From the NCBI RefSeq assembly GCF_003991155.1, contig NZ_CP031293.1: a stretch of 64,000 nucleotides of DNA; one strand, written 5' to 3'. A program made the position numbers and the translations under genes. The notes beneath the pieces are model-generated. The model saw only the letters and a list, made by a program, of their open reading frames with translations. It searched no databases and was not told the origin of the DNA. This DNA comes from Escherichia coli (GTDB taxonomy: Bacteria > Pseudomonadota > Gammaproteobacteria > Enterobacterales > Enterobacteriaceae). Position 1 is the stretch's first letter. Every line of letters starts with the position of its first letter. Positions 819 to 19,088 of the stretch are shown here, piece by piece.

Positions 819-832
819 CAGAGGATGCATTG

Positions 833-3800: not shown

Positions 3801-4891
3801 TGCTGATGCTTGGTTATGACCCTGAGCAGTTTGAAGCTGTTGATCGGCAAATGTACTCCGGTTCTCGTATGGGAGATGACAAGCACAAAATCGATCGATA
3901 TGGCAAAAAGTACGGCTGGATAGCTTACTTCGAGATGTGGGGGATACGATACGCGCAGGGCCTCCTTTCCGAAGAACGCAGTGCTCGCCCATCAGATGCT
4001 GATATCGATCCAACGTTTCCGCAAAAAGTAGAGAGTATTAGTTTGTCACTCCCAGTCTTATTTAACGATCCGTCTGTGGATGATGGTGACTGGATCGTGG
4101 GAGGCCCGCTACCTGACTACCGTAGCATCCTTGAGATTACGGAGGTTGATGGTCTGACGGGGCCATGGATCCTACTTGACGGTTTTGTTGAGCAAAATGC
4201 TACCTCGGATGACCGACAGATTTTCACTTTCCTGCGAGGAGTATTCGTAGATAGCCAAGAAGTTGACAATCTATGTAGGTTGTTCATTGATCTTGAATAT
4301 CCTGGCAATAGCGCCATCCCTGATGCTCCTGGCTACTATTACACCTATGCGGGTGAGATGCCTTTCCCGACTATTCCGGGGCTGCTAGTCGCTAATGAAC
4401 AAGAGGATGATAGCGATGAAAATTTGGTGTTCGCAGAAAGATGGTCAGGCAATGGCGTTGCGGTAGATATCACAGTGCAGGACTACAACTGGGAGAGCTA
4501 CCATAGCGTGGAGAACCAAAGCAGCGGTGCGAGCCTGCCCTCAAAGCAACTTTGTGAGGCTTTGAATCTCAGATACTGTGCAAACAAATGGGATTTGCAT
4601 GATGCTGCAGGTGTAGCGTCACTTTACCGCAAAATTGACGAAAATGGTTCGGACGTCAGTGGCTCTGTCAGCTATCTACGTCGTGATCTACTTGACCGCT
4701 ATTTGATGCAATCCGGTAAGGTATTGGTATGGCTTATGTGGGGAGAGCGTGGTTTTCATTACCGGTCCAACAAGACACGCAATTTGCACAGGTATTACGT
4801 GAATCACCAACATATTCACAAGCGTATTCATATCCATCAGATAGCTTCGAGTACTAGTAACCCAAATATTGCGGATGGAGTCGCTATATGA
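833..4891 (+). CDS. STAND-class P-loop NTPase, Avs/NLR-like, with N-terminal Mrr-like (PD-(D/E)xK, QxK variant) nuclease-type domain
   Basis: Walker A-like AAAGEGKSELA and Walker B-like IPIVIDGLNEAED (the hhhhDGLNE form typical of NACHT/STAND NTPases); N-terminal NFENLCRALV...GWQCKWY resembles the Mrr catalytic core; long C-terminal region. ORF track starts at TTG 815; first ATG is 833. Confidence 0.55.
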   Translation: MPEVNWKVFNELPGAADVNFENLCRALVRRHYGRFGRFKQLANQPGVEFHLELTEPCDLGAPPGWIGWQCKWYELVNGQDLGASRRNKIIEGIEKTRKHVPGVTNWKLWTHHTLTKGDQEWFFALEQDRFPELKLELLTATDIEDLLVGPGALLRETYFGELVLTPELIAEQYKLAVAPFKNRYQPDVHVAVGAEENIFRHLCSQNAWESLEELSNALKKNHTSIASVTEQLKTELRAEVELLLARVIGLTEFIDGLHAALGKGDFNSVYQALVSNPRQPVRYDRLLSKLRGARFDGAPLTANLVADIHAVSSVLRSLEQSISARAVAVLAAAGEGKSELAVKVTQPEGAFLGGILLLGKNLHSGQGLDDLVSAFKISGRPAESFDRLIEAVDAAGQRAGKRIPIVIDGLNEAEDPRNWKDELSRVDELLKNFPYVLLVVTLRNEFAQMCLPEGFPQVEHNGFQEDPKTAFDKYFEYYKIDATDADLPVELLQHPLTLRIFCEVANSPRQHIVGVEALPRSLASLFEAHFNKVAARVAELSPTMHRIYQDDVQDALLTIAGLLWDNNARSVDFQATRMAVRDMGWDDSIIRALESEGILVRTISPEGRQGVAFAYDLMAGHMMARNLLMKPELVQWLQSDEGNAKFKSHGPDSHTFAYDVLRALVDLYPQHSGRRQLWQDLSDDILVMNALLLTTQSDPRYIGRATVERFAQAMQESKRFAQLAFERLRSTRAALAHPFDMSFLHDVLMAMSNTQRDLFWSEWIRQKSEQVKDDLKFLSTRWKSGHLDERELRRVRWVMWTLTTTSRALRDMATKALYEFAIRRPEEFFRLATETIVVSDPYVPERVFAAAYGAVLTTWSDIDAVELHDALPRFAREIYQTMFAPGATAPTWHALHQQYCLGIIAIARMVDPNCFSEDEAVYLLPPFSHLPNVFESIQPYDPEMIGRAESAAIQMDFGNYTIGGLIPDRANYDDSNPEYQQVLQAIVSRMLMLGYDPEQFEAVDRQMYSGSRMGDDKHKIDRYGKKYGWIAYFEMWGIRYAQGLLSEERSARPSDADIDPTFPQKVESISLSLPVLFNDPSVDDGDWIVGGPLPDYRSILEITEVDGLTGPWILLDGFVEQNATSDDRQIFTFLRGVFVDSQEVDNLCRLFIDLEYPGNSAIPDAPGYYYTYAGEMPFPTIPGLLVANEQEDDSDENLVFAERWSGNGVAVDITVQDYNWESYHSVENQSSGASLPSKQLCEALNLRYCANKWDLHDAAGVASLYRKIDENGSDVSGSVSYLRRDLLDRYLMQSGKVLVWLMWGERGFHYRSNKTRNLHRYYVNHQHIHKRIHIHQIASSTSNPNIADGVAI

Positions 4892-5049
4892 GTTACGACT
4901 TCAGAAATCTTTCATCCGCAAACTTTGAGGATCTTGTGCGGGATCTTATCGAAAAAGAAGAAGGGTTCGCTTCGAAGCATTCTCTGTGGGGGCTGATAAT
5001 GATATTGATGGCCGACACGCACATGCTGGAGGGAATGTCAGTTTATAGG
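4888..5049 (+). pseudogene. 53-codon remnant beginning a Mrr-like nuclease domain, ATGA-coupled to the STAND gene stop
   Basis: ATG 4888 overlaps the STAND stop (4889-4891); MSYDFRNLSSANFEDLVRDLIEKEEGF parallels the N-terminal motif of the upstream STAND protein, then terminates early; followed by about 1.2 kb AT-rich ORF-free DNA. Confidence 0.3.
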
Positions 5050-6264
5050 TAAAACCTTATGAAGGGGCGTCGTTTAGTATACTGATGGCTATTATGAAGT
5101 GTGAGTGGTTGTCTAAAGATAAGCTAGCCCTCACACGCTGTATCAAGCGACCTCTTGTTAGCTTACTCCAGCTAGCAAGAGTAAACTTTCCCCACTCATA
5201 GGGCTATGTTTGAAGTCCGAGTCGGAAATTGGGGGGCAGAAGACATAAAAGGTCTCCTTAAGAAGTCTTCTTGTCTGTACAAAAACTCTTATTTTGACAA
5301 AGAGCATTGTAGTTATTAACAGGCTGATTAATAAATTTAAAAATAAGTCGTCAGGAACACCAGATTAGCTACCCAAATTCTCATGCCGTGGAAGCGGAAG
5401 AAAAATACTCCCCTGAATATCTTCATATCGGATATACATAATAAGCTTGAGGTTGTATATTTGAAGAATTGAGTAGCCAGAGCCTTGTTGACATAAAGCG
5501 ACACGAACAACATGTTACTTAAAATATCACGAGTATATATTCAGACTTGTTTATGTTGCGACATGGATTCTACAGGCAGCTGGCTGAAACAGTGAGTCAG
5601 AAAAATTTACAGGAGCGCCATAGTCATTAATGGATATCCGTAATATGCTGATGCAAAAGGGTAAGGAGTTTGCCGGTAATCTGCGGTGTTAGACGACAAT
5701 TACAAAACGACCTTAGGCGTCAATTACCGCTGAAAAAAGTGACAGATCACTTTCTATAAAATGCTGCCGTATGACCGACAGATTTATTCCGCTTTATAGC
5801 CATGACTGTTCGGTGCTCACTTCGCTGCGCTCCGCCTCAGTCCTGCCTAAAAAGCGTTGCAGGTTAGTTTGTATCGGCCTAATGAAAGGCTGTTTTAGCG
5901 AAGCGTAAATGTGACATCTTATCTGGTCTAATCTCTTTGCGATAATTGACGCAAAAGCATGGGCTGTAATTGTCACGCAATACTGCGGCAAGTCTCATGA
6001 TGATGCCTCTGACAGGGATCTCCGTAGCCATTAACTGGTCGATTGGTAAGCTAAAACAAAAAAATTGAATTTGTCAAGACAGCCATAATGACTACCATTT
6101 TCGTCTCTGCTTTTCCATCCTGAAATTAATGGCTATCATATTCGCAATAGACAACATCATCTTACTTGCACTCAACTATAACTAATGCTGAGTGCAAGAA
6201 ACGGGGATTATATCCCCTATCAAGGACCTGTTGAAATATTAGTCTGGAATTTCGAGGCTGTAAT

Positions 6265-6789
6265 TTAAATTGCTCCATTTGCCTTAGCATCAAGAATGAA
6301 TTTTTCATACTCGCGTTCTGCAACAACAACAGGGACTGTTTTGCGATTATATAATTGCATTAATAACAATGTACGATGCCTTCCATCAGAAACACCAAAT
6401 TCACTGTTAGATGCCTCTGGATATTCAACATACCCTTTTGATATATATTTTTTGATTTTATGCCATCTACGCGGATCAATGCAGAATGCTCCATCTCCTA
6501 ATTTTTTAAGAAAGGCTAGCCCATCGACATATACAATCCTGGTAGGACAATGCCGATAGCGTACAGGAAGGGTAAAGATAATATTTTCAAAAACAGGGAA
6601 AGTAAGACCTGAATCATCTTTAGGTATTGACTCAAAGGAATCAAAAGGATATTTTGTCATGTAATCATTTAGTTTTTCAATATCCATATTGGAAAACCAC
6701 GATACTTCCGGGAGAAATTTTTTATCTCTTTCTCTAATTTCTTTGATCGAATCTCCAAATATATCATCTAACCTCCACCCCTCTTTCAT
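6265..6789 (-). CDS. hypothetical protein with C-terminal ParB/Srx-like DGRHR motif
   Basis: 174 aa; GVSDGRHRTLLLMQL near the C-terminus resembles the DGxHR signature of ParB/sulfiredoxin-fold nuclease domains; AT-rich gene downstream of an Rhs immunity gene. Confidence 0.45.
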   Translation of the reverse strand: MKEGWRLDDIFGDSIKEIRERDKKFLPEVSWFSNMDIEKLNDYMTKYPFDSFESIPKDDSGLTFPVFENIIFTLPVRYRHCPTRIVYVDGLAFLKKLGDGAFCIDPRRWHKIKKYISKGYVEYPEASNSEFGVSDGRHRTLLLMQLYNRKTVPVVVAEREYEKFILDAKANGAI

Positions 6790-6833
6790 TTATGCTCCTA
6801 AAATAATGTGATATTAAAAATTCTGTTAATAAG

Positions 6834-7349
6834 TCAAATTTTATGAATACTAATAAGGGGTTTGCACCACTCAACCGAGAGAATATCTTCCATTTTATAA
6901 AAAACGCCATAATCACTTTGATTATAATGCTCAATTTTATCAGCCATTTGTAATCTAATTTTGTCTTTGTAAATTCTACTTCGGATCAAACTGGCGAAAT
7001 TATATATATCAACCCTCAGATTGATAATATTATTTCTATCTGGGCGTCTTTCATGTAACATATCACGAAAAGAAACAAGTAACGTAATTAATTTTTTAGC
7101 CTCATTATTTTTAATATATCCTTTTTTAAAGATGCATAATATTAATTTTGAAATTAAGCTGATTTTTATTTGTAAATTATAGATAGCATTATCGTTTGTC
7201 AGGCAGGTTATGACTTCAATTACTTCACGTGAGCGAATATAATTGTCCAGTGCTTCCCATTCATCCATTCCTCGATGCATTGAAAGTTCCAATTGCCTTA
7301 AAAAAGCATATAACCCCAATAAGAAGTCGCTATTGCAGTATATTTTCAT
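6834..7349 (-). CDS. putative Rhs immunity protein (cognate to orphan Rhs-CT at 7346-8737)
   Basis: 171 aa, AT-rich, immediately downstream of the Rhs-CT gene with a 4-bp ATGA overlap; family not recognised. Confidence 0.5.
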   Translation of the reverse strand: MKIYCNSDFLLGLYAFLRQLELSMHRGMDEWEALDNYIRSREVIEVITCLTNDNAIYNLQIKISLISKLILCIFKKGYIKNNEAKKLITLLVSFRDMLHERRPDRNNIINLRVDIYNFASLIRSRIYKDKIRLQMADKIEHYNQSDYGVFYKMEDILSVEWCKPLISIHKI

Positions 7350-8737
7350 GAATCACATCCTTTAATAAAACTCATTATTCGTGACCAAAAAGAGTCTTTT
7401 TTGTATATAGGGTTTTTATCGTTTAATGGTAAAGGATCGTCTGTTGGTATAACGGCTGTATTTCTTGGCCCAACATTTGTTTTAGTAAGTGAATCTTTGG
7501 AAGCATCAAACTCTACATAAGAACCATTCTTCCATGCCCCTGTTTCTGCACCTGCCGTTTTAGGATCTCCAAATGGCTCCACCTCAACGTGTACACCAAC
7601 AGGATTGCCTCTGGCAGGGTTGATAGACCCATCCTTGCTAATTCCATCAATACCCTCTGTTGAAGTATGATGTCTAACTCTAACAGTATCGTCACCAGTT
7701 AACCCTAACGGATCAATAATTTTTAGCGGATTAAATACATATCCATACAGGCAATCCCCACCTCTCAGCCCCATCGGATCAGCACACAGATACTGCCCCG
7801 TATCGCAATCATAATACCTGAATCGGTTATAGTACAGGCCTGACTCAACATCCTCGTACTGCCCCGGAAAACGTAACCGGCATGTGGGCGCATCTTCTTT
7901 ACTGATGCCTTCCTCACGCCCCCAGAGCTGCTGCTTGCCTTTCCAGACTATCAGACCCTCTTCGGTCAGCAGTTCTTGTACGCGGCCAGTTGTGTCTGTT
8001 ACCGCATAATGCAGTTGCCCCTTTTCATAACGCGCAAACGGCGTGAAATCTCCCGGCTCGTATATCCAGCGGATGGCGTTTTCATCTTCCGGTTTGCCGT
8101 CAGCGCCAACCGGAATTTCCGCCGTCAACTGGTCGCCGTTCCAGTGAAAATCCATGCCGCGTTTGTCGCGGCTGGTACAGCGCTTGCTGATGCGCCTGCC
8201 GAACGGGTCATACTTATATTCCCAGCGTTCGCCCTCCGGTGTTTCCAGTCCGGTCAACTGGCTGCGTGCATCCCATTTATAACGCCATTCCAGTGGGCGA
8301 TAACCCCCTTTATCCACCAGTTTCTGTACCAGCCTGCCGTTAACATCATATTTCCAGGTGATGTTGTGCGCATTCACCACCCGGACAAATCTCCCGTCTT
8401 CCCCTTTTCCGGTGTCCGGGTTGATGCGATGCGTCGAGTGCCGCCAGCCTTCATGTTCCCGCGATACCACACGACCATGCTGCTGTTGCTGGTGCGTCTC
8501 GCTTTCCAGTACGTTATTCACCCTGATCTGGCGACGGGTAATGTTCAGGTTTTTATCGTAAGTGAACAGCTCCTCGCACAGCGGAAACTGGCTGGAATCA
8601 CCCGTCCAGGTGGCGTGGCTTATCTGGTCGTTTGCCGTGATGGTGTTGAACATGGAGCCGCGCAGCGAGTCGGCGATTGCGGTGAGGTTATACGCTTTGT
8701 CGTAGCTTCGCTGCGTCGGGAGGTTTCCATGCCGCAC
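7346..8737 (-). CDS. orphan Rhs C-terminal fragment: end of YD-repeat core plus variable C-terminal toxin domain
   Basis: YD-repeat-like segments (YKYDPFGRR, WIYEPGDFTP) and the core-terminating motif YYNRFRYYDCDTGQYLCADPMGL...DPLGL, followed by a ~115-aa unrelated C-terminal domain; GC-rich core against AT-rich tip. No full-length Rhs N-terminus upstream. Confidence 0.75.
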   Translation of the reverse strand: MRHGNLPTQRSYDKAYNLTAIADSLRGSMFNTITANDQISHATWTGDSSQFPLCEELFTYDKNLNITRRQIRVNNVLESETHQQQQHGRVVSREHEGWRHSTHRINPDTGKGEDGRFVRVVNAHNITWKYDVNGRLVQKLVDKGGYRPLEWRYKWDARSQLTGLETPEGERWEYKYDPFGRRISKRCTSRDKRGMDFHWNGDQLTAEIPVGADGKPEDENAIRWIYEPGDFTPFARYEKGQLHYAVTDTTGRVQELLTEEGLIVWKGKQQLWGREEGISKEDAPTCRLRFPGQYEDVESGLYYNRFRYYDCDTGQYLCADPMGLRGGDCLYGYVFNPLKIIDPLGLTGDDTVRVRHHTSTEGIDGISKDGSINPARGNPVGVHVEVEPFGDPKTAGAETGAWKNGSYVEFDASKDSLTKTNVGPRNTAVIPTDDPLPLNDKNPIYKKDSFWSRIMSFIKGCDS

Positions 8738-8850
8738 AGGTCGTGCTCAAATGTCAGCGGGGCATGGTCCGCTATTCGCCATGACGTAAGATGCCCCATC
8801 AGGTCGCGGGTGAAGCGTTCTGTGATACCCTCAGCCTGTAATTTTACAGG

Positions 8851-9285
8851 TTAAATGGGGAATTTTTCTTCAATGAGCTTCAAGCCAAGTAATGCCATAT
8901 CATGAATATCTTCATCATGCGATTGAGCCGAAATTTTCAACCCGTTTACCATTCTTTTATCTGGGAAAGACATTGTTAATATAGTACACCAAAGCCTAAC
9001 GCTTTTTATTGTGTTAGGATTTTCGAGTATGTTAACGATATTTATAACAACATCATTAAAATCACACTTATAGAGAAAATCCTCAACAATTTGATATACT
9101 CCAAGACCATCACCCTCACCAAAAGATCGCAAAAATAAAGGTATTGCATCTTTATCGGGATGGGAAAGAAAGTAAATTCGTACCTCATCGTATTTATCTA
9201 TAAGATCCTGAGTAATATCACAATCCGCGGGCATTGGTTGATGTAGTGACAGGAACTCTAATGCTTCTTTTTTATTCATATTCAT
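8851..9285 (-). CDS. putative Rhs immunity protein (cognate to the IS-truncated Rhs-CT at 9282-9763)
   Basis: Small ORF starting immediately after the upstream toxin stop; likely start at the internal Met (MNMNKKEALEF). Confidence 0.45.
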   Translation of the reverse strand: MNMNKKEALEFLSLHQPMPADCDITQDLIDKYDEVRIYFLSHPDKDAIPLFLRSFGEGDGLGVYQIVEDFLYKCDFNDVVINIVNILENPNTIKSVRLWCTILTMSFPDKRMVNGLKISAQSHDEDIHDMALLGLKLIEEKFPI

Positions 9286-9763
9286 ATATTTAATGATTCC
9301 CAAAGTTTTTTATTCTGTCTGGCTAACTCATATAGTTGTTCAGTGATGACCTTTTTATCATAGCCTGCATTTGTTAAGATTTTTCTTAGGTCATCTATAT
9401 CCCTTTTCAAATATTGTTCTTTTGTCAAACCTCGAACAAATGCTCGTCTGAATGTCCAGGTAAGAGCATGTAAATCTTTACGCAGATTTATCGTAATTCC
9501 CTTACATTTTGTTGTGGGGCTTACCGCATCCTGAATGGCATGATGAGGTGTATGAGTTGCATTAAGCCCTGTTTTACCATTCGCATAAATTGAAGAACCA
9601 TATGTACCAACGTATAAATCTTCTCCTGGACCAGCTAACAATCCCAAGGGATCAATCCATACCAGTGGATTTGGAGCGTAATTGTAAAGGTTTACTCCCC
9701 CCGACAGTCCAATCGGATCAGCACACAGATACTGTCCTGTCTCGCAATCATAGTACCGGAACC
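9282..9763 (-). pseudogene. Rhs core tip plus C-terminal toxin domain, 5'-truncated by the IS3-family element
   Basis: Rhs-derived coding begins at RFRYYDCETGQYLCADPIGL...DPLGL exactly at the IS left terminus (9764); the annotated Met and first ~16 codons are read from IS terminal sequence. C-terminal domain of unknown family. Confidence 0.65.
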
Positions 9764-11013
<1,250 letters not shown>

Positions 11014-11016
11014 CCA

Positions 11017-11385
11017 CTACAATGAGAGCATAAGTACACCTGCCGTCATTTCTGGTACGGCAACGCCCCCCGGTGTATAAGCTGTCCCGTTAATGATGAT
11101 GTCACAGGCGGGTTTCAGGGGGGCGAGGTCGCTTTCGCGCAGTACCGGAGATGTGTTCATCTCCCCGGCATACTCATCTTCCACACACAGCGGTAGCGGC
11201 GGGTTTTCGATAAGTTGGGTTTGCCACTGACCATTTTCGTCCCGTTGCAGCCGGAAGCCCGTTTTCATGGCGATAACGCGGTGACGTTCGCTATGTTTAT
11301 CATCCATCGCATATTCTATCGCTGAAAACGGCGTCAGGTTACGAAATTCCATATTGCACCCCGATCCCGTCTGTACCTGTCGCAA
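11017..11385 (-). pseudogene. N-terminal fragment of a gene truncated at the IS right end
   Basis: ORF runs into the IS right terminus and hits a stop inside the inverted repeat. N-terminus MEFRNLTPF... is tentatively reminiscent of T6SS-associated DUF2169-type proteins, from memory only. Confidence 0.35.
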
Positions 11386-11790
11386 AACATAATTCTACAG
11401 ATGGCACAGTATCCCCCTGATACAGGTAAAAACTTATTTCACGGAAACCGGCATAGCAAACTGGATGACACAATACCGGGCAAAACGATAAGTATGGTTA
11501 CTATATGAAACGGAATACTCCCGTTTCGTATTATTTTTTTTGACTGATATCAACGGGACGAATTAACTGACAGGATATTTACTGGAAAGTGTCTGCATAT
11601 TGCTCAATATATTTTTAATGGAAATGTATTCTCCATTAATATTTATGGTGTGATTGTGTTTCCCTGTGTGTCAGCTTCCGCTAAACCCCTTGCTGCAAAT
11701 TACCGATCATTGTATTGTTGCGCCGCGCCTGCAAAATCAGGCGTCGGGATTGGAACCCTGATAAGTGTTACAGGCGACATATAGCGCATT

Positions 11791-12426
11791 TTGCGTCTTT
11801 TTTATGTCGTGCGTCTGGCTGCATCTCAATGGTGGGCTGGACGGGGGCGTCGCAAGACGCGCCGGTTTCCTGTAACACCGGTAGTTCCAACCCCGTTCAG
11901 TTCACCACCAATGAGATTGGAACCTCTGGTGGTGGAATTACCACCCGTTACAGGAGGCTATCCTATGGTTATCATCCTTTCCCCTGACTGCGACTTACTT
12001 TCCATCCCCTTCAGTGCCACCACGGATTTCACCGATCTGGCCGACTACTGCGATCGCTTCGCTGAAACCCTGATCGAATGCCACGATCCGGCGCTGAAAA
12101 TGGCGCTTTATGGCAGGATCAACGCCAGCCTTGCGCTGCTGCGTCCCTCGTTGGGCGAGCCGATCCCGCTGCACCTGATCGACCGTTTCATTGTGGACAC
12201 GCTTCCCGACGTTTCACCGCGCTTTGAACCCGGCGCAGGGCTGCTCTGTGACTACTGTCTGGCGCTGACGCAGGTATTAAGCGGGCGGTCGCTGCTGCCG
12301 GAAACCGAAACCACACTGACCGGGTTGCTGTGCGAACTGGTCTGGTATTTTGCCGCCGACCTTAAAGCGCCGCAGTGGCTGCGCACCGCTGATGGCTTAC
12401 AGGTTATTGACGGGGGGACGGTATGA
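11791..12426 (+). CDS. hypothetical protein, translationally coupled to the downstream Ner-like gene
   Basis: GC-rich ORF whose stop overlaps the Ner-like start (ATGA at 12423-12426); true start uncertain. Confidence 0.35.
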   Translation: MRLFYVVRLAASQWWAGRGRRKTRRFPVTPVVPTPFSSPPMRLEPLVVELPPVTGGYPMVIILSPDCDLLSIPFSATTDFTDLADYCDRFAETLIECHDPALKMALYGRINASLALLRPSLGEPIPLHLIDRFIVDTLPDVSPRFEPGAGLLCDYCLALTQVLSGRSLLPETETTLTGLLCELVWYFAADLKAPQWLRTADGLQVIDGGTV

Positions 12427-12677
12427 TGCAACCGGACTGGCATCCCGCCGATATCATGGCAGCACTGCGAAAACGTGGTACGTCGCTGGCAGCGGTTTCC
12501 CGCAAAGCGGGACTGGCGTCCGCCACACTGGCAAACGCGCTGAGCCGCTCCTGGCCGCGTGGCGAAAAACTCATTGCGGATGCGCTGGAAACATCACCGG
12601 AAATTATCTGGCCGTCCAGATATTTCGATGATCAGGGCAACCGTATTGTAAGGCTCATGCGAAAGCAGTGCTCCTGA
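12423..12677 (+). CDS. Ner/Nlp-family DNA-binding protein
   Basis: DWHPADIMAALRKRGTSLAAVSRKAGLASATLANALSRSWPRGEKLIADAL...IWPSRY matches E. coli Nlp / Mu Ner closely from memory. Confidence 0.8.
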   Translation: MMQPDWHPADIMAALRKRGTSLAAVSRKAGLASATLANALSRSWPRGEKLIADALETSPEIIWPSRYFDDQGNRIVRLMRKQCS

Positions 12678-12796
12678 TGACAGAAGTGTCAGAAACACGA
12701 TTACAGTAAAATCAGGCTCTCCCGGCTCTCTGCCTGCTTCTGCTGGCGGAGAGCCGGGAGAAGACAAGCGAAGCGCGGCAGGATGCCATCCCGCTG

Positions 12797-13099
12797 TTGA
12801 TAACAGTCACAACCGGAGTCGTTTTTATGCACATGTTTAATCCACCCCATCCGGGTGACGTCCTTCGCGATTATCTGGACGGCGTGAGCATCACGCAGGC
12901 CGCTTCCCGGCTTCAGGTATCGCGCTCGCGGTTATCCCGTATCCTCAATGGACATGCACCAGTGACGGCTGATATGGCGCTACGTCTGGCGGCGCTGCTG
13001 AATACCCGCGCTGAACTGTGGACGGGGATGCAGTCTGAGTATGGCCTCTGGCAGGCGTCACAAAAACCACGACCCGTTATCCGGTCATTGCGGGGTTAA
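12797..13099 (+). CDS. HigA-family HTH (XRE-type) antitoxin-like protein, no adjacent HigB-like toxin ORF
   Basis: NPPHPGDVLRDYLDGVSITQAASRLQVSRSRLSRILNGHAPVTADMALRLAALLNT...ELW is the HigA/VapI pattern; likely start at internal Met (12827 or 12833). Confidence 0.7.
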   Translation: MITVTTGVVFMHMFNPPHPGDVLRDYLDGVSITQAASRLQVSRSRLSRILNGHAPVTADMALRLAALLNTRAELWTGMQSEYGLWQASQKPRPVIRSLRG

Positions 13100-13186
13100 C
13101 TCAGCATTTTACATTCACAAATACACGATAAAATCAGGGGGAAAACCAATATCCAGAAAAATGAGTTTCCCCTTTCTGCGCCAGAA

Positions 13187-15521
13187 ATAACGGTGTAATC
13201 TCCCTCCTGCATTGTCGCCTTCGGGCACCCTTTGGCTTCATGGTCTGCAAGAAGCCCCTGATTTATCAGGATGACCAGCCCTTACTACCGGTACGACCTC
13301 CGCAATACCGGAACGCGAAAGCGTTTGAGGCTAAGAGTACATACACCCGAACGGCTTCATCGTCATTGCTTAACGGCAACAGTCTTCACCGGCTGAACGG
13401 CTTTTCTTTGCCGGAATTTCCCGACTGCCCCATACCCAGCTGAAAACAGCGCCCTTTACATGACGGGCTGCGGCCTGCATTGCCGTCAGGCTTTGCTGCC
13501 GCGTGACCGTCATTCTGCACCAGAAACGCAACGTTTACCCCCTGCACCAGATGAGGCGTCACTTTGGTCGCGCCAGCGAAAAAGCAAAGTGACGCCGTAC
13601 AACATACCGCCGCAAGCCGCGCCAGTTCTGGCCTGCGTCCTGTTTCCGCCGTCTGACATGCCCTTTGGGGCGCTGTCAGTCCAGAGTAAAGGAGAAAAAG
13701 ATCGATACCGAGGGGGGCACGACGCCCCGGAGATACCCCTGCTTCGTCAGGCAGTCTGTACCGCGTACAGCCTGAAACTCCCTAAACCTCAACAATCAGC
13801 CACTCCGGCGTGAAGGTATCGTTCTGGCGCAGCCAAAAAGCACACGCCGGAGACTGTTTGTTTTTTGTTGCAGGGGGTAGTTATGAGCAAATTAAGCAGT
13901 GAAATGAAGGCGCTGGCGAAAAAAGCAGGCGGTAGTTTCAGAACGGTGGACTACCGTATCCATGCCACGAAGCGGTTCAGTCAGCATTTACGCGAACTGA
14001 ATATTCAGATCCAGCGGGTGGAGCAGATCAAAGTTCGCCATATCGAATGCTATATTCAGGAGCGGCTGGAGCAGGATATTGGCCTGCGCACGCTGCAAAA
14101 CGAAATGGCGGCGCTGCGGGCCGTGCTGAGGCTGGCGGGACGCCGGCAGGTGGTGGAGCATCCGCGCCTGACCAATAAGGCGCTGGGGCTGTCAGGTGCT
14201 TCGCGCAACGGCACGCGTCGCGCCATCACGCCGGAACATTATGAAAAAGTGATGGAGAACGCCCGCGCACAGGATGCGGGGCTGGCGGCAGCGGTGGAGA
14301 TCGCGCGACTGATGGGATTACGCTCGCAGGAGGCGGTACAGAGTTCACAGTCGCTGAAAACGTGGCTGAAAGCCATTTCCCGCGGCGAAACCCGGCTGAA
14401 AGTGGTGTTTGGCACCAAAGGCGGGCGTCCGCGTTACACGACGCTCCTGGACGCTGGCGCAGTCAGGAAGGCGGTGGAAAACGCATTACCGATCGCCAGA
14501 CAGCGCAATGGCAGGCTGATCGACAAGCCAGACCTTAAAACGGCGCTGGAGAGCTGGCACAAACAGGCCATTAAGGCGGGGCTGAAAGGGGAATTTTCCC
14601 CGCACTCGCTGCGTTATGCGTGGGCGCAGGACGCGATCCGCCATTATCTGGCGCAGGGATTCAGCGAAAAGGAATCGCTGGCGCTGACGGCGACGGATCT
14701 GGGTCATGGCGACGGTCGCGGCCGCTGGGTGAAACAGGTGTACGGCTACCGCTGGAAGGAGGAATAACGGCTTTCATGAATGGCGCAAAATAGTACGTTA
14801 CTGCGTAACGACAGCGATTTATCGTACCCTCTGTACCGGATCTGGCGCAGGGGGCGAGCGGGTTTGTATTGTGAAAATATCGTTACAGCATGACGAATAA
14901 ATATCAATAGCTCAGATTTTCCTGCTGAACCAATGTAGCTCGCCGGAATATTATAGTGATTACCCGGTAATCACTCGAAACGATCCCGATTAATAGCTGG
15001 TGTTTCAATCGTTTTACCGATATTACAGGTACAGGGTCGGGAAATTTTAAAATGTAAACTCACCGAGGCATCACATTAATTCTGGCGCAGGATTATATCT
15101 GAATAATTCTCTCTGTGTTTTCCTGCATCCTGTGACATATATTGCATGGTCACAGAATGTCTCATGATTTTATAAAAAATGCTGCGACGGTTTTTGACAT
15201 CATAACCTGCTGCATATAGATTAATAATTTTCGGTGCTTCATGTTATTTTTTTGCGCTCTGTGATCGTTATCTGGTGGTGAAAATACAATCTGGTGCAGA
15301 CTGTCATGGTGCATTTCTGAATAAACTGGTTGCGCCAGAAAGGGAAAGGGCCATAAAGGTTAAGGGGCGATAAGGGTAACAGCGCCTGACCGGAAAGGGC
15401 CGAAAACCAAAGAGCCAGAAACTGGCGCAGTCCTGAATGTGTGAAGTGGCGAGACGCTGGCGCAGATAACCGATCTTCCGGGGCTGGTGCAGATTATTTC
15501 GTCTCTGTATATCTGGTGCAG
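13187..15521. repeat. dispersed array of at least 10 copies of the decamer TCTGG(C/T)GCAG
   Basis: Copies at 13187-13195 (inverted), 13823-13832, 14841-14850, 15081-15090, 15289-15298, 15330-15338 (inverted, degenerate), 15421-15430, 15456-15465, 15483-15492, 15512-15521; mostly in non-coding DNA flanking the integrase-family gene. Confidence 0.7.
13883..14767 (+). CDS. tyrosine-recombinase (phage integrase) family protein, short form
   Basis: C-terminal FSPHSLRYAWAQDAIRHYL...GRWVKQVYGY has the HxxR...H...Y pattern of tyrosine recombinase catalytic domains; AGGGGG Shine-Dalgarno precedes ATG 13883. Confidence 0.5.
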   Translation: MSKLSSEMKALAKKAGGSFRTVDYRIHATKRFSQHLRELNIQIQRVEQIKVRHIECYIQERLEQDIGLRTLQNEMAALRAVLRLAGRRQVVEHPRLTNKALGLSGASRNGTRRAITPEHYEKVMENARAQDAGLAAAVEIARLMGLRSQEAVQSSQSLKTWLKAISRGETRLKVVFGTKGGRPRYTTLLDAGAVRKAVENALPIARQRNGRLIDKPDLKTALESWHKQAIKAGLKGEFSPHSLRYAWAQDAIRHYLAQGFSEKESLALTATDLGHGDGRGRWVKQVYGYRWKEE

Positions 15522-15579
15522 TTATAATATGTATCAGGGAAGGCTGTCCGGTATTTTATGACGCCTCTTTTAGAGTATA

Positions 15580-15654
15580 TTAATTGGTATTTCCGTGAAA
15601 ATATCGCTTATTGATAGTTTTTCATCTTCCGTGATTAACGCGTTAATCACGGAA
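15580..15654. promoter_or_regulatory. two adjacent palindromes (candidate operator or hairpin sites)
   Basis: Perfect 30-bp palindrome CTTCCGTGATTAACG/CGTTAATCACGGAAG, then an inverted repeat TACCTATCAA(N11)TTGATAGGTA. Confidence 0.4.
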
Positions 15655-15776
15655 GACTGTTACCTATCAAAAAAAGATATATTGATAGGTAACGGTCAAA
15701 TTTTATTTGGGGCCAAATAATTGTAGATACTTTCCGATTGGTAATAAAAAAGAACAACGGCAATACCTCTCAATAC

Positions 15777-15814
15777 AAAAAAGCAGATCCCGGCCAATCA
15801 GGATCTGCTTTTCC
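15777..15814 (-). terminator. intrinsic terminator downstream of the P4-type integrase reading frame
   Basis: Inverted repeat AAAAGCAGATCC...GGATCTGCTTTT followed on the minus strand by a T-run. Confidence 0.55.
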
Positions 15815-15841
15815 ATTTTAATGATTTCAGCTATTTATGAC

Positions 15842-17104
15842 TCAGGCTGCCTTATGCTGCCGCGCATAAATATACGGCGCGACATACCCCTCGCGGCACA
15901 CATCCAGATAATCCGACCACCACTGCATCATGGCCTTTCTGGCCTCCAGATGCTCCGCTTTATGCACATAGGCCGCCCGCACGCTGTTACGCTCCTAGTG
16001 GCTCATTTGCCGTTCCACCGTATCGCGTGACCAGAGATCCGACTCTACCAGGGCGCTACAGGCCATTGCGCGAAGTCCATGTCCGCACACATCGGTTTTC
16101 GTATCATACCCCATCAGGCGCAGCGCCCGGTTGGTTGTGTTTTCGCTCATTGGCTTGTACGGGTTATGGTCGCCGGGGAATACCAGATCCAGATGGCCGG
16201 AAAGCTCCTGTATCTGTTTCAGAATGGCAATCGCCTGGCGGGAGAGTGGCACGATATGCGGACTACGCATTTTTGCGCCACGCCCCGAAAACCGTACTTT
16301 GTCGATGGCCTCGCGGGTGGCGGGGATGGTCCAGATTTTGTGCCTGAAATCAATCTCGCTCCAGCGGGCGAAACGCAGTTCGCTGGAACGGATGAACAGG
16401 TGCAGTGTCAGCACCACCGCCAGCCGGGTTAACTCCCGGCCCTGCCGGTAATCGCCAATACGATCGAGCAATTCAGGCAACCGCTCCAGCGGTAAAGCGG
16501 GATAGTGATTCTTGACGGGAGAGGCGACTACACCATCCAGATGCTGCGCCGGGTTGCTTTCGGTCAGTCCCTGCTGAACGGCATAGCGCATGATGTTGCT
16601 GAGTTGCTGCCGGGTTCGGGACGCGACTTCCAGAAAGCCCTTATCCTCAATAACCCGCAGCAAAGCCGTGAAATCCTGCGTTTTAAGCGCAGCAACGGGC
16701 AGATGACCAATCGCCGGGAAGATATGGTTTTCCATACTGGCGAGAATACGGGCGGCATAATCAGCCGACCATTTTTTGTTGGTTTTGTGCCAGGCCAGCG
16801 CCACCGCCTTAAAGCACTTTTCAGGGGAGCAGGCGGATTTCTCTGCCATACGCTGTTGCGCCGGGTTGATATTCTGCGCCAGTAGCTTGCGGATACCGTC
16901 GCGCTGTTGCCTGGCTTCTGCCAATGAGACAAGCGGATATGCGCCAAGACTGACTCTGGATTCTTTTCCGTTGAAACGATATTTGAGATACCAGATGCGT
17001 GAACCACCCGGATTGACGAGCAGATACAGACCCTGAGAGTCGGAGAGTTTTACCGGACGGGAAGAAGACTTTAACTTGCGGATTTTAGAATCGTTTAAAG
17101 ACAT
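15842..17104 (-). pseudogene. P4-type tyrosine integrase interrupted by an in-frame amber codon (TAG at 15995-15997)
   Basis: N-terminus MSLNDSKIRKLK...GLYLLVNPGGSRIWYLKYRFNGKESRVSLGAYP is P4-integrase-like. Translation stops after ...VERQMSH, but the same frame continues ERNSVRAAYVHKAEHLEARKAMMQWWSDYLD... to a stop at 15842-15844; the catalytic-Tyr region lies after the amber. Confidence 0.75.
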
Positions 17105-17265
17105 TTGGGGGTCACTCCAGAATCGAACCAAACTGACCCCAGATCTGACCACCAAATTATCCCGATGCGGAGAGAAAATTAGATACGCACCGGGAAGGAT
17201 TTTCACGCTAACTTACTGAATCGTAAACAAATAGAGACGCATAGATAAGCATGAAAACTTGAATT

Positions 17266-17341
17266 TGGCTCCTCTGACTGGACTCGAACCAGTGACATAC
17301 GGATTAACAGTCCGCCGTTCTACCGACTGAACTACAGAGGA
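17266..17341 (-). tRNA. tRNA-Asn (GUU)
   Basis: 76-nt reverse complement of TCCTCTGTAGTTCAGTCGGTAGAACGGCGGACTGTTAATCCG...GGAGCCA; anticodon loop CUGUUAA. Confidence 0.95.
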
Positions 17342-17441
17342 ATCGTGAGAACGAGGCGAATATTAGCGACGCTCATCCACAATGTCAAAGCCTGTTTTTT
17401 AAATTTGAAATCGTTTGCTGAAATAATCTGCACTTTGTCGT

Positions 17442-19088
17442 TTATTCCGACACAACTGGCTTTTTTTCACACTTTTGCGGCTCAGGTCGAGGATATTTCC
17501 ACAGCCAACGTCCAGTAACCATTCGCCAGTAAAACAGCACGGCCCGCACAGCCCAGTCGGCAAACATTCCCATCCAGACACCAACTACACCCCAGCCAAG
17601 CATGATTCCCAGCACATAACCGACTACAACCCGGCAACCCCACATGCTCAACATAGAAACCCACATGGCGTAACGTGCATCGCGAGCACCCTTAAATCCA
17701 GCGGGTAGCACCCATGAGGCAGACCAAATAGGCATAAATAAAGCATTTAGCCAAATCAGAATCACAACGACATGTTTAACCTGTGGATCCTGGGTGTAAA
17801 ACGATGCCATAACCCCGGCAAAGGGAGCCGTTAGCCAGGCGATGGCCGTTAATCCAAGAGTGGACAGCCAGAACACATGCCGCAACTGAATCTCTGCTTG
17901 CGCTATCTGCCCTACCCCCAACCTTCGGCCTGTAATGATCGTAGAAGCAGAGCCGAGCGCACTTCCGGGTAAGTTGATAAGAGCCGCAATTGAAAACGCG
18001 ATAAAATTTCCGGCAATAACACTGGTCCCCATCCCGGCAACGAACATTTGGGTTAATAACCGACCACTGGTAAATAACACTGATTCGACACTCGCTGGAA
18101 TACCAATCCCCATGACTTCCCAGATAATGCTAAAATTCAGCGGGTTAAAATAGCTCTTTAACGAAATTCTTAGCGCAGGATTAAAACCAATCGCCAGCAC
18201 CCACAAAATTGCAACTGCGCCAATATAACGAGAAATGGTTAAACCCAACCCAGCCCCGACAAATCCCAGTCCCGGCCAGGAGAAAAGGCCGTAAATCAAT
18301 ATGCCGCTAATAATAATATTAAGAATATTCAGGCTACCGTTAATCAGTAGCGGTATTTTCGTATTCCCTGCACCACGAAGTGCCCCGCTACCAATCAAAG
18401 TGATGGCAGCTGCTGGATAACTGAGTACCGTCAGCTCCAGATAAGTCAACGCCAGTGCTTTAACTTCTGTCGTGGCATCACCCGCGACGAAATCAATAAT
18501 TTGTTCGCCAAAATGATGAATAAGCGTTGCCAACAGTACGGCAAACAACGTCATGATCACCAATGACTGCCGCGTCGCCACCCTCGCTCGTCGTCGATCC
18601 CGCTTACCGAGACAAAATGCCACAACGACAGTAGTACCAAGATCGATAGCAGCAAAAAAAGCCATAATGACCATATTGAAGCTGTCCGCCAATCCCACGC
18701 CGGCCATCGCATCTTTTCCCAGCCAGCTGACCAGAAAAGTGCTCAGGACCCCCATCAACAGGACACAGGCATTCTCCATGAAGATAGGAACAGCAAGCGG
18801 GGTTATCTCGCGCCAGAACAACACTTTGTAGCTCTTGCGTTTAGCGTGCCAGCGAGTGCCGTGAACAACCTGGCGTAAAGCAGAGGAGATATTCAAAGCC
18901 GACCTTAATTGCAGAAAGTGAAACCACATTTCAAATAATGAGGGAGAATCAGCAAAGCTGCAAAGATTTTCGCCAACAAATTGTCTGCAAATGCAACAAA
19001 CTGTTGATAGAAACGGCAAACGGTTGGGAAATTTAAAAATCGGGTTTGACAAAAGATTTTTCGCCGTTAAGATGTGCCTCAACAGCAA
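17442..19088 (-). CDS. yeeO: MATE-family efflux transporter YeeO
   Basis: 548-aa polytopic membrane protein in the yeeO position between two tRNA-Asn genes; N-terminal ~60 codons are not membrane-like, so the true start may be internal. Confidence 0.75.
   Translation of the reverse strand: MLLRHILTAKNLLSNPIFKFPNRLPFLSTVCCICRQFVGENLCSFADSPSLFEMWFHFLQLRSALNISSALRQVVHGTRWHAKRKSYKVLFWREITPLAVPIFMENACVLLMGVLSTFLVSWLGKDAMAGVGLADSFNMVIMAFFAAIDLGTTVVVAFCLGKRDRRRARVATRQSLVIMTLFAVLLATLIHHFGEQIIDFVAGDATTEVKALALTYLELTVLSYPAAAITLIGSGALRGAGNTKIPLLINGSLNILNIIISGILIYGLFSWPGLGFVGAGLGLTISRYIGAVAILWVLAIGFNPALRISLKSYFNPLNFSIIWEVMGIGIPASVESVLFTSGRLLTQMFVAGMGTSVIAGNFIAFSIAALINLPGSALGSASTIITGRRLGVGQIAQAEIQLRHVFWLSTLGLTAIAWLTAPFAGVMASFYTQDPQVKHVVVILIWLNALFMPIWSASWVLPAGFKGARDARYAMWVSMLSMWGCRVVVGYVLGIMLGWGVVGVWMGMFADWAVRAVLFYWRMVTGRWLWKYPRPEPQKCEKKPVVSE

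Follow-up and report, generated by a model that had tools for sequence, protein, structure and literature searches.

Organization of the island around the spacer

The inverted repeats described here lie in a 1.07-kb non-coding spacer inside an island integrated at a tRNA-Asn gene of Escherichia coli, and were studied in the context of the surrounding 64,000 nucleotides of DNA (the window). Two genes converge on this spacer: a gene encoding a protein with PF12835 (Integrase_1) and PF12834 domains, and a pseudogene of a P4-type tyrosine integrase (Table 1). PF12835 is the Pfam signature in use in the literature for MpsA-like (MOB_M) tyrosine-recombinase-type relaxases, and on the basis of this family membership and that literature the gene product is a relaxase candidate; a search against the sequences of the PDB gave no match at E <= 0.01. 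The homology of this region to the islands at lysine and aspartate tRNA genes spans the spacer and ends at the stop codon of the integrase, and therefore the spacer moves with the relaxase-like side.

The spacer contains no open reading frame of more than 50 amino acids, which rules out an mpsB-like gene within it. A hidden coding region was also rejected: a 45-amino-acid frame in E. albertii reads the decamers as ELAQI repeats, and this frame is broken in Salmonella, in Klebsiella and in the window. The decamers, CTGGYGCAG, number eight between 14842 and 15513, against 0.44 expected, and occur in minimal versions of the spacer too. The purine-rich element within their array is the ancestral core of the spacer; RNAalifold gave it -9.4 kcal/mol with no covariation support, and thus no conserved RNA structure. 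The P1-like hairpin situated 190 bp past the stop codon of the relaxase-like gene differs in loop length among relatives, while the G+C-rich hairpin at the integrase end, a bidirectional terminator-like site as judged from its sequence, is kept in all related loci. The left flank of the AT-rich hairpin unit is invariant, or almost so, across all E. coli variants. In place of the P2 remnant the relatives have the palindrome AAAATTATTCACC/GGTGAATAATTTT, and Salmonella has AT-rich palindromes with other centres.

Table 1. Features of the spacer and its surroundings (positions in the window)
Feature	Position	Strand	Remarks
HTH_35 (Ner/SfsB-like) regulator	12423-12677	+	Candidate P1 binder if P1 were an operator
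EFASI motif	13697-13825	+	RF02957 (99 bits), immediately ahead of the relaxase-like gene
PF12835 (Integrase_1) + PF12834 protein, 294 aa (relaxase-like)	13883-14767	+	Pfam domains
CTGG(C/T)GCAG decamer array	14842-15522	+	Seven copies on the + strand, one inverted at 15331
P1-like hairpin	14955-14975	none	AGTGATTACC-C-GGTAATCACT
Inverted repeat with YGTGA core	15126-15159	none	CATCCTGTGAC-N12-GTCACAGAATG
Purine-rich conserved element	15327-15431	+	AAGGG repeats, invariant GTAACAGCGCC
AT-rich hairpin unit (P1 + IR2 + P2)	15570-15778	none	31.6% G+C, about 210 bp
Conserved left flank of the unit	15591-15617	+	Single half-site TTCCGTGAAAATATCG, then TTATTGATAG
P1 palindrome, perfect, 32 bp	15625-15656	none	Halves TCTTCCGTGATTAACG/CGTTAATCACGGAAGA; palindrome of the first-pass annotation
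IR2	15659-15693	none	Perfect 12-nt arms, GTTACCTATCAA-N11-TTGATAGGTAAC; second repeat of the first-pass annotation
P2 remnant	15703-15720	none	TTATTTGG-GG-CCAAATAA
G+C-rich hairpin flanked by A and T runs	15779-15812	none	Directly past the integrase stop codon; terminator-like
P4-type tyrosine integrase pseudogene	15842-17104	-	Internal stop near 15995
tRNA-Asn	17269-17341	-	Integration site of the island

The palindrome P1 and the inverted repeat IR2

The first-pass annotation had reported a perfect 30-bp palindrome, with the decamers to its left and the integrase gene to its right, followed immediately by an inverted repeat. This setting is correct and the palindrome is indeed perfect, but CTTCCGTGATTAACGCGTTAATCACGGAAG (15626-15655) gains a further matched base on each side, and the range originally assigned (15580-15654) is some 40 bases off, taking in the left flank and most of P1 and no part of IR2. 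The second repeat, TACCTATCAA-N11-TTGATAGGTA, was found at 15661-15691, though not directly adjoining, the two quoted sequences being separated by the five bases ACTGT. The arms of IR2 can be lengthened to 16 nt at 94% match (15655-15697).

P1 is the sole perfect zero-spacer palindrome with arms of at least 8 in the window, and the analytic expectation for a palindrome with 16-nt arms is about 1.5e-5. Inverted repeats having perfect arms of at least 12 and a spacer of at most 20 number seven in the window; five of these fall within 12718-15812, and three within the 190 bp from 15625 to 15812, where block-wise shuffles gave a mean of 0.1. The predicted folding is much stronger than that of shuffled sequences on both strands (z = -6.3 and -7.8). 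A chance origin of the symmetry of P1 and IR2 is excluded.

Occurrence and variation in related loci

P1 was detected in 442 of 5426 E. coli genomes, with one or two sites in each (both strands of a site being counted), and every match inspected in E. coli sat in the same island module. Among 100,044 species genomes the sole match was in E. whittamii. A dispersed palindromic repeat of the REP, ERIC or MITE kind was rejected, since the element is not scattered. Pattern scans of metagenome and viral collections gave mostly chance matches in unrelated DNA, and nothing similar to the P1/IR2 unit was found among plasmid and phage sequences.

Absence from homologous islands had been proposed as evidence against a functional site. 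In close relatives the elements were found, namely in the islands at asparagine and lysine tRNA genes of E. coli and in E. whittamii. The first-pass annotation was right in regarding them as non-random, conserved cis elements of the island. The aspartate-tRNA island retains just the left flank of the unit and the third palindrome, and the minimal modules (E. albertii, with a 190-bp spacer, Salmonella and Klebsiella) are without P1, IR2 and P2. A single hairpin unit is present in the window and in E. whittamii, while most relatives have a tandem duplicate, two units being found in loci L002-L005.

The relatives of P1 show changes in both arms at 6 of the 17 base pairs, among them CCGTG/CACGG to CTGTG/CACAG, TTAAC/GTTAA to TTTGC/GCAAA and TGTGA/TCACA to TTTGA/TCAAA. 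Pairing is preserved in 92.5% of cells; sliding the partner lowers this to 49% or less. In IR2 79.6% of cells are paired with zero double changes, and conservation resides in the TTGATAG/CTATCAA motif itself. Two variants of the palindrome, types A and B, occur side by side in one spacer and differ from each other at symmetric positions; the centre is ACGCGT, which is symmetric, in the window and in type A, and GCGGGC, which is asymmetric, in type B. In locus L004 the palindrome is perfect over 54 bp; its right arm repeats the left flank in inverted form, in place of the sequence seen in L002. Orthologous hairpins also differ in the length of their loop or spacer, and perfect or near-perfect palindromes are found in at least five lineages at 12-25% divergence.

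The spacer of Salmonella India, of which 12% was covered and which is otherwise unalignable, contains three units in which the flanks TATTGATAG-nTTTTC... and GTACnnTTTCCTATYAATA enclose palindromes unrelated to P1. This Salmonella lineage has architectural equivalents of the unit, with other palindromes between the shared flanks TATTGATAG and CTATYAA.

A possible fold-back DNA element

P1 and IR2 may be an accessory DNA element, forming hairpins or cruciforms, of the mobilisation and integration module, which is the reading that we prefer, though only tentatively. P1, IR2 and P2 are three neighbouring fold-back elements composing the AT-rich unit, which on this reading was inserted into the spacer between the relaxase-like and P4-type integrase genes and tandemly duplicated in most relatives. 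Evolution has retained self-complementarity and the short flanking motifs (TATTGATAG ... CTATYAA), not the sequence of the palindromes. The unit would act as DNA, its arms pairing as an extruded cruciform when the molecule is supercoiled or, alternatively, as hairpins on a single strand during transfer or replication, while some protein from the DNA-processing module would bind the flanking motifs. It would thereby serve as a structure-dependent accessory site for mobilisation or integration of the island and not as an operator read by sequence. The data show that the repeats exist and are not random, that their arms change in pairs, that palindromes are exchanged between conserved flanks, how the unit is distributed and that it matches no known family; that DNA is the active form, that there is a protein partner and that the role is one in mobility are points that we infer.

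The preference for DNA over RNA comes from the symmetry running through the centre of the palindromes, where the loop of an RNA is unconstrained. Of 12 palindromes tallied by eye, some of which are not independent of one another, about 6 have this central symmetry, against an expectation of 1 in 16 (p of about 4e-5, or 9e-4 with just 8 independent cases). The stems are AT-rich and nearly all of their pairs are Watson-Crick. The variable loop length suits a hairpin and not a rigid dimer site, and the genes for DNA-cleaving enzymes on both sides of the spacer are compatible with a role in mobility. A recombination accessory site, the other suggestion of the first-pass annotation, would likewise be compatible with these neighbours, a tyrosine-recombinase-like relaxase candidate and an integrase.

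Against such an element, the unit is not needed for the core function of the module, because the minimal modules are without it. IR2 is its weak member, having no compensatory change. The islands are decaying, as seen from the internal stop in the integrase here and from frameshifts in the relaxase-like gene of some relatives. The symmetry may moreover have come from mutation, since hairpin-templated change can create or repair palindromes in the absence of selection; the central symmetry and the inverted duplication in L004 make such an origin possible.

Palindromes as a possible by-product of replication

This last consideration leads to the alternative that the repeats are functionless, an explanation that we regard as unlikely. 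An AT-rich spacer prone to inverted duplication would undergo hairpin-templated correction (quasi-palindrome template switching) in replication, which would make perfect palindromes and keep their arms matched without any selection. Template-switch mutation at quasi-palindromes is established in E. coli through the work of Ripley and of the Lovett laboratory, and the spacer resembles such hot spots in showing multiple simultaneous changes that match the arms, perfect central symmetry and an inverted duplication that extends the arms, the 54-bp palindrome of L004 having arisen by inverted copying of the left flank. Central symmetry, which selection for a hairpin would not demand, is seen in half of the palindromes; the unit count shifts between one and two by unequal recombination, and both the minimal modules and the decay of the islands fit a dispensable sequence. 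However, known hot spots lie at arbitrary loci, whereas here the same architecture and flanks recur across genera in several copies: the arrangement of a palindrome within conserved flanking motifs, with three units to a spacer, persists from E. coli to Salmonella despite a remainder that cannot be aligned. At 15% divergence, few palindromes of 30 bp would survive neutral decay intact, and at least five lineages keep them.

Were the unit a working cis site, it would help to explain the processing or movement of such islands, which bring genes for type VI secretion and for RHS toxins to E. coli tRNA sites, and would also be a simple marker for one island lineage. Were it only a by-product, it would be a clear natural case of palindromes made and kept symmetric by hairpin-templated mutation.

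A possible operator for a Ner-like regulator

The first-pass annotation had suggested an operator, for which there is one lead, although the variation of the element speaks against it. P1 would be the operator of the Ner-like HTH_35 regulator of the island or of its host homologue SfsB/Nlp, two molecules reading the half-sites CCGTGATTAAC; nearby YGTGA sites would be bound as well, and binding would control a promoter in the spacer. We consider this unlikely. The HTH_35 protein is 59% identical to Ner of phage D108 (E = 8e-27), and in D108 the repeat CCGTGAGCTAC-N8-GTAGCTCACGG, which we take from the older literature to be the Ner operator, lies 25 bp upstream of ner. Both P1 and the D108 repeat have inverted half-sites of 11 bp, beginning with CCGTGA and ending with AC; CCGTGATTAAC and CCGTGAGCTAC are identical at 8 of 11 positions in the same outward CCGTGA polarity, a match with a chance of about 1e-3 per register. 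Additional CYGTGA half-sites occur at 15130, 15259 and 15593, inverted repeats with a GTGA core begin at 14955 and 15126, and weak promoter-like sites adjoin the unit.

The geometry does not agree with this assignment, the half-sites being separated by 2 bp in P1 and by 8 bp in D108, and the distance from GTGA to TCAC varying among the local repeats (11, 12 and 14). The HTH_35 gene lies 3 kb upstream of P1, which is placed where two genes converge and, unlike the D108 operator, is neither beside the regulator gene nor between divergent promoters; the enrichment of GTGA is mild (13 against 8.0 +/- 2.8). Both arms change together, even in the CCGTGA core, under an unchanged Ner-like recognition helix. 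The half-site reads CTGTGATTTGC in type B and TTTTGATTTGC in locus L127, where the recognition helix is identical and yet the arms of P1 read TTTTGA, and the Salmonella palindromes are without the motif despite a near-identical helix. Nor does the presence of the palindrome follow that of the regulator gene: in loci L002-L004 the palindromes are perfect and the 2-2.3 kb of sequence fetched ahead of the relaxase-like gene contains no annotated HTH_35 gene, and L130-L132 have the gene and lack such a repeat.

Possible RNA hairpins and terminators

P1, IR2 and P2 could alternatively act as RNA hairpins that stabilise, process or terminate a spacer transcript, either the 3' UTR of the relaxase-like gene or an RNA of about 590 nt running from a promoter near 15194-15222 to the terminator at 15779-15812. 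A role in RNA is improbable in our estimation. In its favour, the mobilisation of SGI1 requires an sRNA encoded beside mpsA (PMC9299015). Folding is predicted to be strong on both strands, a sigma-70-like site matching at 10 of 12 positions is present at 15194-15222 on the + strand with the first terminator at 15779, and P1 covaries, two of the intermediates (CCATG...CACGG and GTAATT...AATCAC) corresponding to G-U pairs on the - strand. G-U pairs are nevertheless sparse and inconsistent as to strand, the stems are very AT-rich, and an RNA hairpin does not account for symmetry across the loop positions. The -35 and -10 elements of the presumed promoter are changed in L003-L005. An Rfam scan of 13500-17600 at E <= 1 gave at the element only IS128, at chance level (19.9 bits against a gathering score of 80, E = 0.7), and at gathering scores nothing was found there in a scan of the whole window. 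An intrinsic terminator at P1 or IR2 was rejected because the terminator scan was negative there and neither strand has a T run downstream.

Comparison with recombination sites

Sites such as loxP, FRT and those of the dif type share a 13-6-13 geometry, as does P1, which on this analogy would be a core-type site with its arms bound by the PF12835 protein or the integrase and cut in the central 6 bp, the TTGATAG motif and the decamers being accessory sites. We find this very doubtful. Genes of the tyrosine recombinase family flank the spacer on both sides, accessory-like repeats are many, and there are relatives with two direct copies of which the single-unit variants resemble deletion products; such deletions are explained equally well by homologous recombination, the repeats lying about 240 bp from each other. 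Unlike the known sites, the window type and type A have a symmetric centre and hence no polarity, and the arms differ between copies in one genome and across lineages with near-identical enzymes. Minimal modules have the decamers and the PF12835 gene without P1, and no such palindrome lies near the PF12835 genes of ICEs.

The attC sites of integrons work in a folded, single-stranded form, in which a tyrosine recombinase recognises them. The likeness, by analogy only, consists in short inverse end motifs around a centre that is conserved as a palindrome and not as a sequence, over 60-70 bp. The present locus differs in lacking an IntI-type integrase, R'/R'' (GTTRRRY) boxes and gene cassettes between its copies, and its palindromes are perfect, without extrahelical bases.

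The decamers are separated from the att core by the integrase gene and by more than 1.4 kb, and arm-type sites of the integrase were rejected since the decamers and spacer are kept beside unrelated integrases at asparagine, lysine and aspartate tRNA genes. The decamers recall the P4 Int arm repeats (TTGGGGGCATAT), and GGTGAATAAT in the P2 palindrome recalls the P4 type-1 iterons (TGTTCACC). Sites of P4 replication or packaging were rejected, local alignments to P4 ori, crr and cos scoring 21-24, inside the shuffle range (maximum 25); the gene order also differs from that of P4. By eye, the motifs did not match the consensus spacing of IHF, CRP, matS, Fur or sigma-70 promoter sites.

Comparison with origins of transfer

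A precedent for the fold-back element is the oriT of the MpsA type, which is described as three stem-loops, conserved in structure and divergent in sequence (PMC8409611; PMC6414798). The oriT of MOB_M elements is described as lying directly upstream of the relaxase gene, and that of SGI1 as about 125 bp long, GC-rich and made up of an array of inverted repeats (PMC6414798, PMC8409611). The hairpin unit resembles the SGI1 oriT as a cluster of three stem-loops beside a tyrosine-recombinase-like gene of relaxase type, in which structure appears to be kept over sequence, and has direct repeats and a G-rich tract in its vicinity, as reported for the oriT of pIGRK. Of the three stem-loops P1 covaries, IR2 has no double changes, and P2 is palindromic with other sequences and a remnant in the window. 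The unit differs from the SGI1 oriT in its low G+C content, although an array of inverted repeats is present, and in lying about 850 bp downstream of the relaxase-like gene (P1 starts 858 bp past the stop codon), not upstream of it. The upstream position is filled by EFASI, and the minimal modules do without the unit. The search of plasmid and phage sequences gave no sign of oriT mimicry.

P1-IR2-P2, the CTGGYGCAG decamers and the purine-rich core could together be an undescribed structure-specific DNA site of MOB_M relaxases, a suggestion that we offer as a long shot. Such a site could be a second origin of transfer or a site of transfer termination or strand priming, and the perfect palindromes might be footprints of the hairpin-forming chemistry of the enzyme, as inverted duplications seeded at the cleavage site. 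MOB_M relaxases have recently been reported to be the commonest in bacterial chromosomes, and only three have been studied (bioRxiv 10.64898/2026.01.13.699239). The hairpin unit itself is a finding of modest weight; the broader leads are the purine-rich element that follows the relaxase-like gene and EFASI, a likely oriT, which was present upstream of the PF12835 gene in all eight of the loci checked.

Genomic setting

The window comes from the asn tRNA region of the E. coli chromosome (cbl, nac, yeeO, ldtA, cob, pdu) and matches about 30 sequenced strains at 100% identity. The palindrome (P1) and the adjacent inverted repeat (IR2) both exist as the first-pass annotation described them, shifted some 40 bases rightward from the range it gave. 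They lie in a non-coding spacer of 1,074 bp (14768-15841) that separates two convergent genes, one for a relaxase-like protein and one for the island integrase. The integrase has an internal stop (window 15995) in this strain and in the E. coli asn-tRNA islands L003 and L004, whereas L002 and L005 have it intact; L005 and the tRNA-Asp island L126 have a frameshift in the relaxase-like gene. Beyond the EFASI element, on its upstream side, the island encodes a HigA-like protein, a Ner/SfsB-like HTH_35 protein and P4-type immunity RNAs. This P4-like region (11725-11987) comprises isrK (11725-11803), C4 antisense RNA (11825-11912) and an 'ash family' ORF, a set also present upstream of the module in Salmonella and the lys-tRNA island. 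Window 1-11400 is a second asn-tRNA island facing the first, with an intact P4-type integrase and a cargo of a RelE/ParE toxin-antitoxin pair, RHS toxin genes, and an IS3 beside a short DUF2169 (T6SS-associated) gene; isrC (9832-9954) adjoins the IS3.

Coordinates of the island features, in the window and in related loci
Feature	Locus	Position	Strand	Remarks
EFASI (Rfam)	window	13697-13825		99 bits; directly upstream of the PF12835 gene
EFASI	L125	3555-3684		
EFASI	L127 (tRNA-Lys island)	2111-2239		
EFASI	L130	3808-3936		
EFASI	L131 (E. albertii)	3809-3937		
EFASI	L132	3809-3937		
EFASI	L008	4721-4871		
EFASI	L009	4737-4886		
294-aa "integrase domain-containing protein" (annotation)	window	13883-14767		left of spacer; PF12834 + PF12835 (1e-58)
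P1-like hairpin	window	14955-14975		AGTGATTACC-C-GGTAATCACT; left half of spacer
Inverted repeat	window	15126-15159		CTGTGAC-N12-GTCACAG; left half of spacer
Purine-rich element	window	15327-15431		AAGGG repeats, invariant GTAACAGCGCC; bracketed by decamers
Purine-rich element	L131	4905-4989		
Purine-rich element	L132	4906-4993		
Purine-rich element	L130	4921-4985		
Purine-rich element	L125	5001-5082		
P1	window	15625-15656		TCTTCCGTGATTAACG|CGTTAATCACGGAAGA; perfect palindrome, 32 bp
IR2	window	15659-15693		GTTACCTATCAA-N11-TTGATAGGTAAC; perfect 12-nt arms
P2 remnant	window	15703-15720		TTATTTGG-GG-CCAAATAA
P4-type integrase pseudogene	window	15842-17104	-	internal stop; right of spacer, adjoins tRNA-Asn
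tRNA-Asn	window	17269-17341		

Anatomy of the hairpin unit

In a search of the whole 64 kb, no perfect zero-spacer palindrome other than P1 had arms of 8 nt or longer. Inverted repeats with perfect arms of at least 12 nt and spacers of up to 20 nt numbered seven in the window, five of them in 12718-15812 and three in 15625-15812, against a mean of 0.1 in block-wise shuffles. The arms of IR2 extend to 16 nt (15655-15697) if one mismatch is allowed. Two adjacent strong hairpins are predicted on either strand, with fold z-scores of -6.3 and -7.8. Outside the spacer, a long inverted repeat at 12718-12761, 3' of the HTH_35 gene (TCTCCCGGCTCTC...GAGAGCCGGGAGA), recurs in Salmonella serovar India, L003 and L127, and another at 13555-13596, upstream of EFASI (GGCGTCACTTTG...CAAAGTGACGCC), recurs in the Salmonella India locus.

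P1, IR2 and a third palindrome (P2) belong to one AT-rich hairpin unit (15570-15778). The full unit, as in the tRNA-Lys island, reads TATTAATTGG, a lone half-site TTCCGTGAAAWTATCG, TATTGATAG, TTTTCAYC and P1, followed by CTATYAA-N9-11-TTRATAGG (IR2), P2 (AAAATTATTCAC-NN-GTGAATAATTT), GTAC-TTTCCAATTAATAATAAC and the terminator. The asp-tRNA island is without P1 and IR2, P2 alone being left.

Distribution among relatives

Of 5,426 complete E. coli genomes, 442 match a 200-bp query around P1 and IR2, each time in the chromosome, and all inspected matches sit in one and the same module: T6SS/RHS cargo, HTH_35, sometimes HigA, EFASI, the PF12835 gene, spacer, integrase and tRNA. It is inserted at asn tRNAs (L002-L005), tRNA-Asp (L126) and tRNA-Lys (L127). 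Homology to the lys and asp islands spans the whole spacer and ends at the integrase stop codon, the integrases beyond being unrelated. This places the spacer with the relaxase-like side and rules out the decamers (CTGGYGCAG repeats) as arm sites specific to one integrase. In most relatives the P1-holding unit is duplicated in tandem at a distance of about 240 bp; it is single in the window and in E. whittamii. When 100,044 species genomes were scanned for the pattern, E. whittamii alone had the P1 family. Phage and plasmid collections gave no match except one plasmid record that is in fact a chromosome fragment of Salmonella serovar India.

The Salmonella India spacer is alignable over only 12% of its length (purine-rich element and terminator). 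It has three units with the common flanks TATTGATAG-nTTTTC... and GTACnnTTTCCTATYAATA, inside which stand AT-rich, unrelated palindromes, AAAAATATTCTAC|GTAGAATAATTTT and TCGTACAAAAAATTTTG-TCCC-CAAAATTTTTTGTACGA. A minimal module is found in E. albertii, where the spacer measures 190 bp, in a Salmonella island that is very common, and in one of Klebsiella. It has three parts 3' of the relaxase-like gene: CTGGYGCA decamers, the purine-rich AAGGG element with its invariant core GTAACAGCGCC, and the integrase terminator hairpin. None of these minimal modules contains the palindromes. Conservation in related islands, proposed earlier as a check, extends to E. coli asn- and lys-tRNA islands and E. 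whittamii and stops short of the minimal modules. Since the latter keep the core without the palindromes, the hairpin unit is, on this comparison, a later, lineage-specific addition around an older conserved core.

Variation and covariation

Eighteen distinct units were aligned without gaps, anchored on a flank motif outside the palindrome. In P1, 92.5% of cells were paired; sliding the 3' partner gave no more than 49%. Both sides had changed in 6 of 17 pairs: C-G to T-A at 22/43, A-T to T-A or to G-C near the centre, and G-C to T-A in the lys island. The observed count of doubly changed cells was reached by 2 of 500 shuffles and the covariation score by none of 500. Types A (..CCGTGATTAACATGTTAATCACGG..) and B (..CTGTGATTTGCGGGCAAATCACAG..) occur together in one spacer. 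IR2 was paired in 79.6% of cells with zero double changes, its TTGATAG/CTATCAA cores being kept as sequence. In P1, self-complementarity appears to be what is maintained, and hairpin-templated mutation probably contributes to it.

Our tentative interpretation is that the unit is an accessory fold-back DNA element with short putative protein-binding flanks, part of the mobilisation/integration module of a tRNA-associated island family. Its arms would fold back in the DNA as a hairpin or cruciform and proteins would bind the flanks; a role in transfer, priming or recombination can be envisaged. Among known systems it would work most like the stem-loop arrays of MOB_M oriTs (MOB_M being the MpsA-like relaxase class) or like integron attC sites, in its kept structure, free sequence and short conserved flank boxes. 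By several of their testable features the unit falls outside MOB_M oriTs, attC sites and D108-type Ner operators alike, and it is best filed among the inverted-repeat cis elements of mobility modules.

Alternative explanations

Palindromes do arise de novo in this spacer: in L004 (4419-4472) a 54-bp perfect palindrome with 26-nt arms, its right arm an inverted copy of the left flank, stands in place of sequence found in L002. The whole unit could be a function-less by-product of palindrome-generating mutation; we consider this unlikely.

RNA hairpins, in a 3' untranslated region or a non-coding RNA, are a rather improbable alternative. About 6 of 12 palindromes are symmetric through the centre (a tally by eye, not all independent) where 1 in 16 is expected (p ~4e-5, or 9e-4 if just 8 are independent), and this symmetry at loop positions, with the near-absence of wobble pairs, points to DNA rather than RNA. 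A promoter-like site on the + strand (15194-15222; TTGACA-17-TAGATT, 10/12) could yield a transcript of about 590 nt via decamers, purine-rich element and palindromes to the terminator; L003-L005 have changes in its hexamers. A second promoter-like site lies on the - strand (15727-15700).

An operator had been suggested in the first-pass annotation, and a Ner-like one can be specified. In phage D108 the repeat CCGTGAGCTAC-N8-GTAGCTCACGG, presumably the Ner operator, precedes ner by 25 bp. In P1, 8 of the 11 half-site bases are identical to it and the polarity agrees, and the island HTH_35 protein is 59% identical to D108 Ner. However, the half-sites are 2 bp apart in P1 and 8 in D108, the P1 arms are TTTTGA in one strain whose recognition helix is unchanged, and the motif is absent from the Salmonella palindromes. 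Moreover, palindromes are kept where the flank examined has no annotated HTH_35 gene, and HTH_35 is present without them in some loci. This reading is accordingly also improbable. A recombinase core site seems very doubtful, and a terminator, an Rfam RNA, P4 ori/crr/cos, a dispersed repeat, arm-type sites and a hidden ORF were each tested and rejected.

Relaxase-like gene and EFASI

The 294-aa protein, which has only weak XerC/D matches, is probably an MpsA-like relaxase, as assigned by Pfam signature and literature. PF12835 is the signature used by the Burrus laboratory for MpsA-like atypical relaxases (PMC10484663). MOB_M relaxases are reported to be the commonest chromosomal relaxases, often annotated as integrases, with 96% of them adjoining an integrase, in MPF_G ICEs or alone (2026 preprint, bioRxiv 10.64898/2026.01.13.699239). 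The loci here fit this picture: PF12835 homologues were located in Klebsiella on a conjugative element, in Pantoea on a plasmid typed MPF_G, and elsewhere beside integrases.

EFASI lies about 55-135 bp upstream of all PF12835 genes examined, including those of the Klebsiella element and the Pantoea plasmid. Its model, of Rfam class 'sRNA', is a long-range stem around three GC-rich hairpins. Because this position (upstream of mpsA) and shape are those published for the SGI1 oriT, EFASI may act as an origin of transfer and not as an RNA. The hairpin unit is unlikely to be the primary oriT, being AT-rich and downstream of the gene, while EFASI sits directly upstream.

Decamers and purine-rich element

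Decamer copies mark window 12955-16875: of the 26 copies of CTGG[CT]GCA in the 64 kb, 16 fall within 11000-17400. Ahead of the relaxase-like gene, the copies at 13177, 13516 and 13543 point the other way from the downstream array, and the gene is therefore bracketed by oppositely oriented sets. The purine-rich element follows the relaxase-like stop codon directly in E. albertii, Salmonella and Klebsiella and is 78-84% identical, against about 71-77% for the relaxase-like gene. RNAalifold found no structure in it and Rfam no family; the oriT of pIGRK (MobK) likewise needs a G-rich tract. In E. albertii a 45-aa ORF is called across the minimal spacer (L131 4903-5040) and would render the decamers as ELAQI repeats; it is unlikely to be a real gene, since Salmonella, Klebsiella and the window all break its frame.
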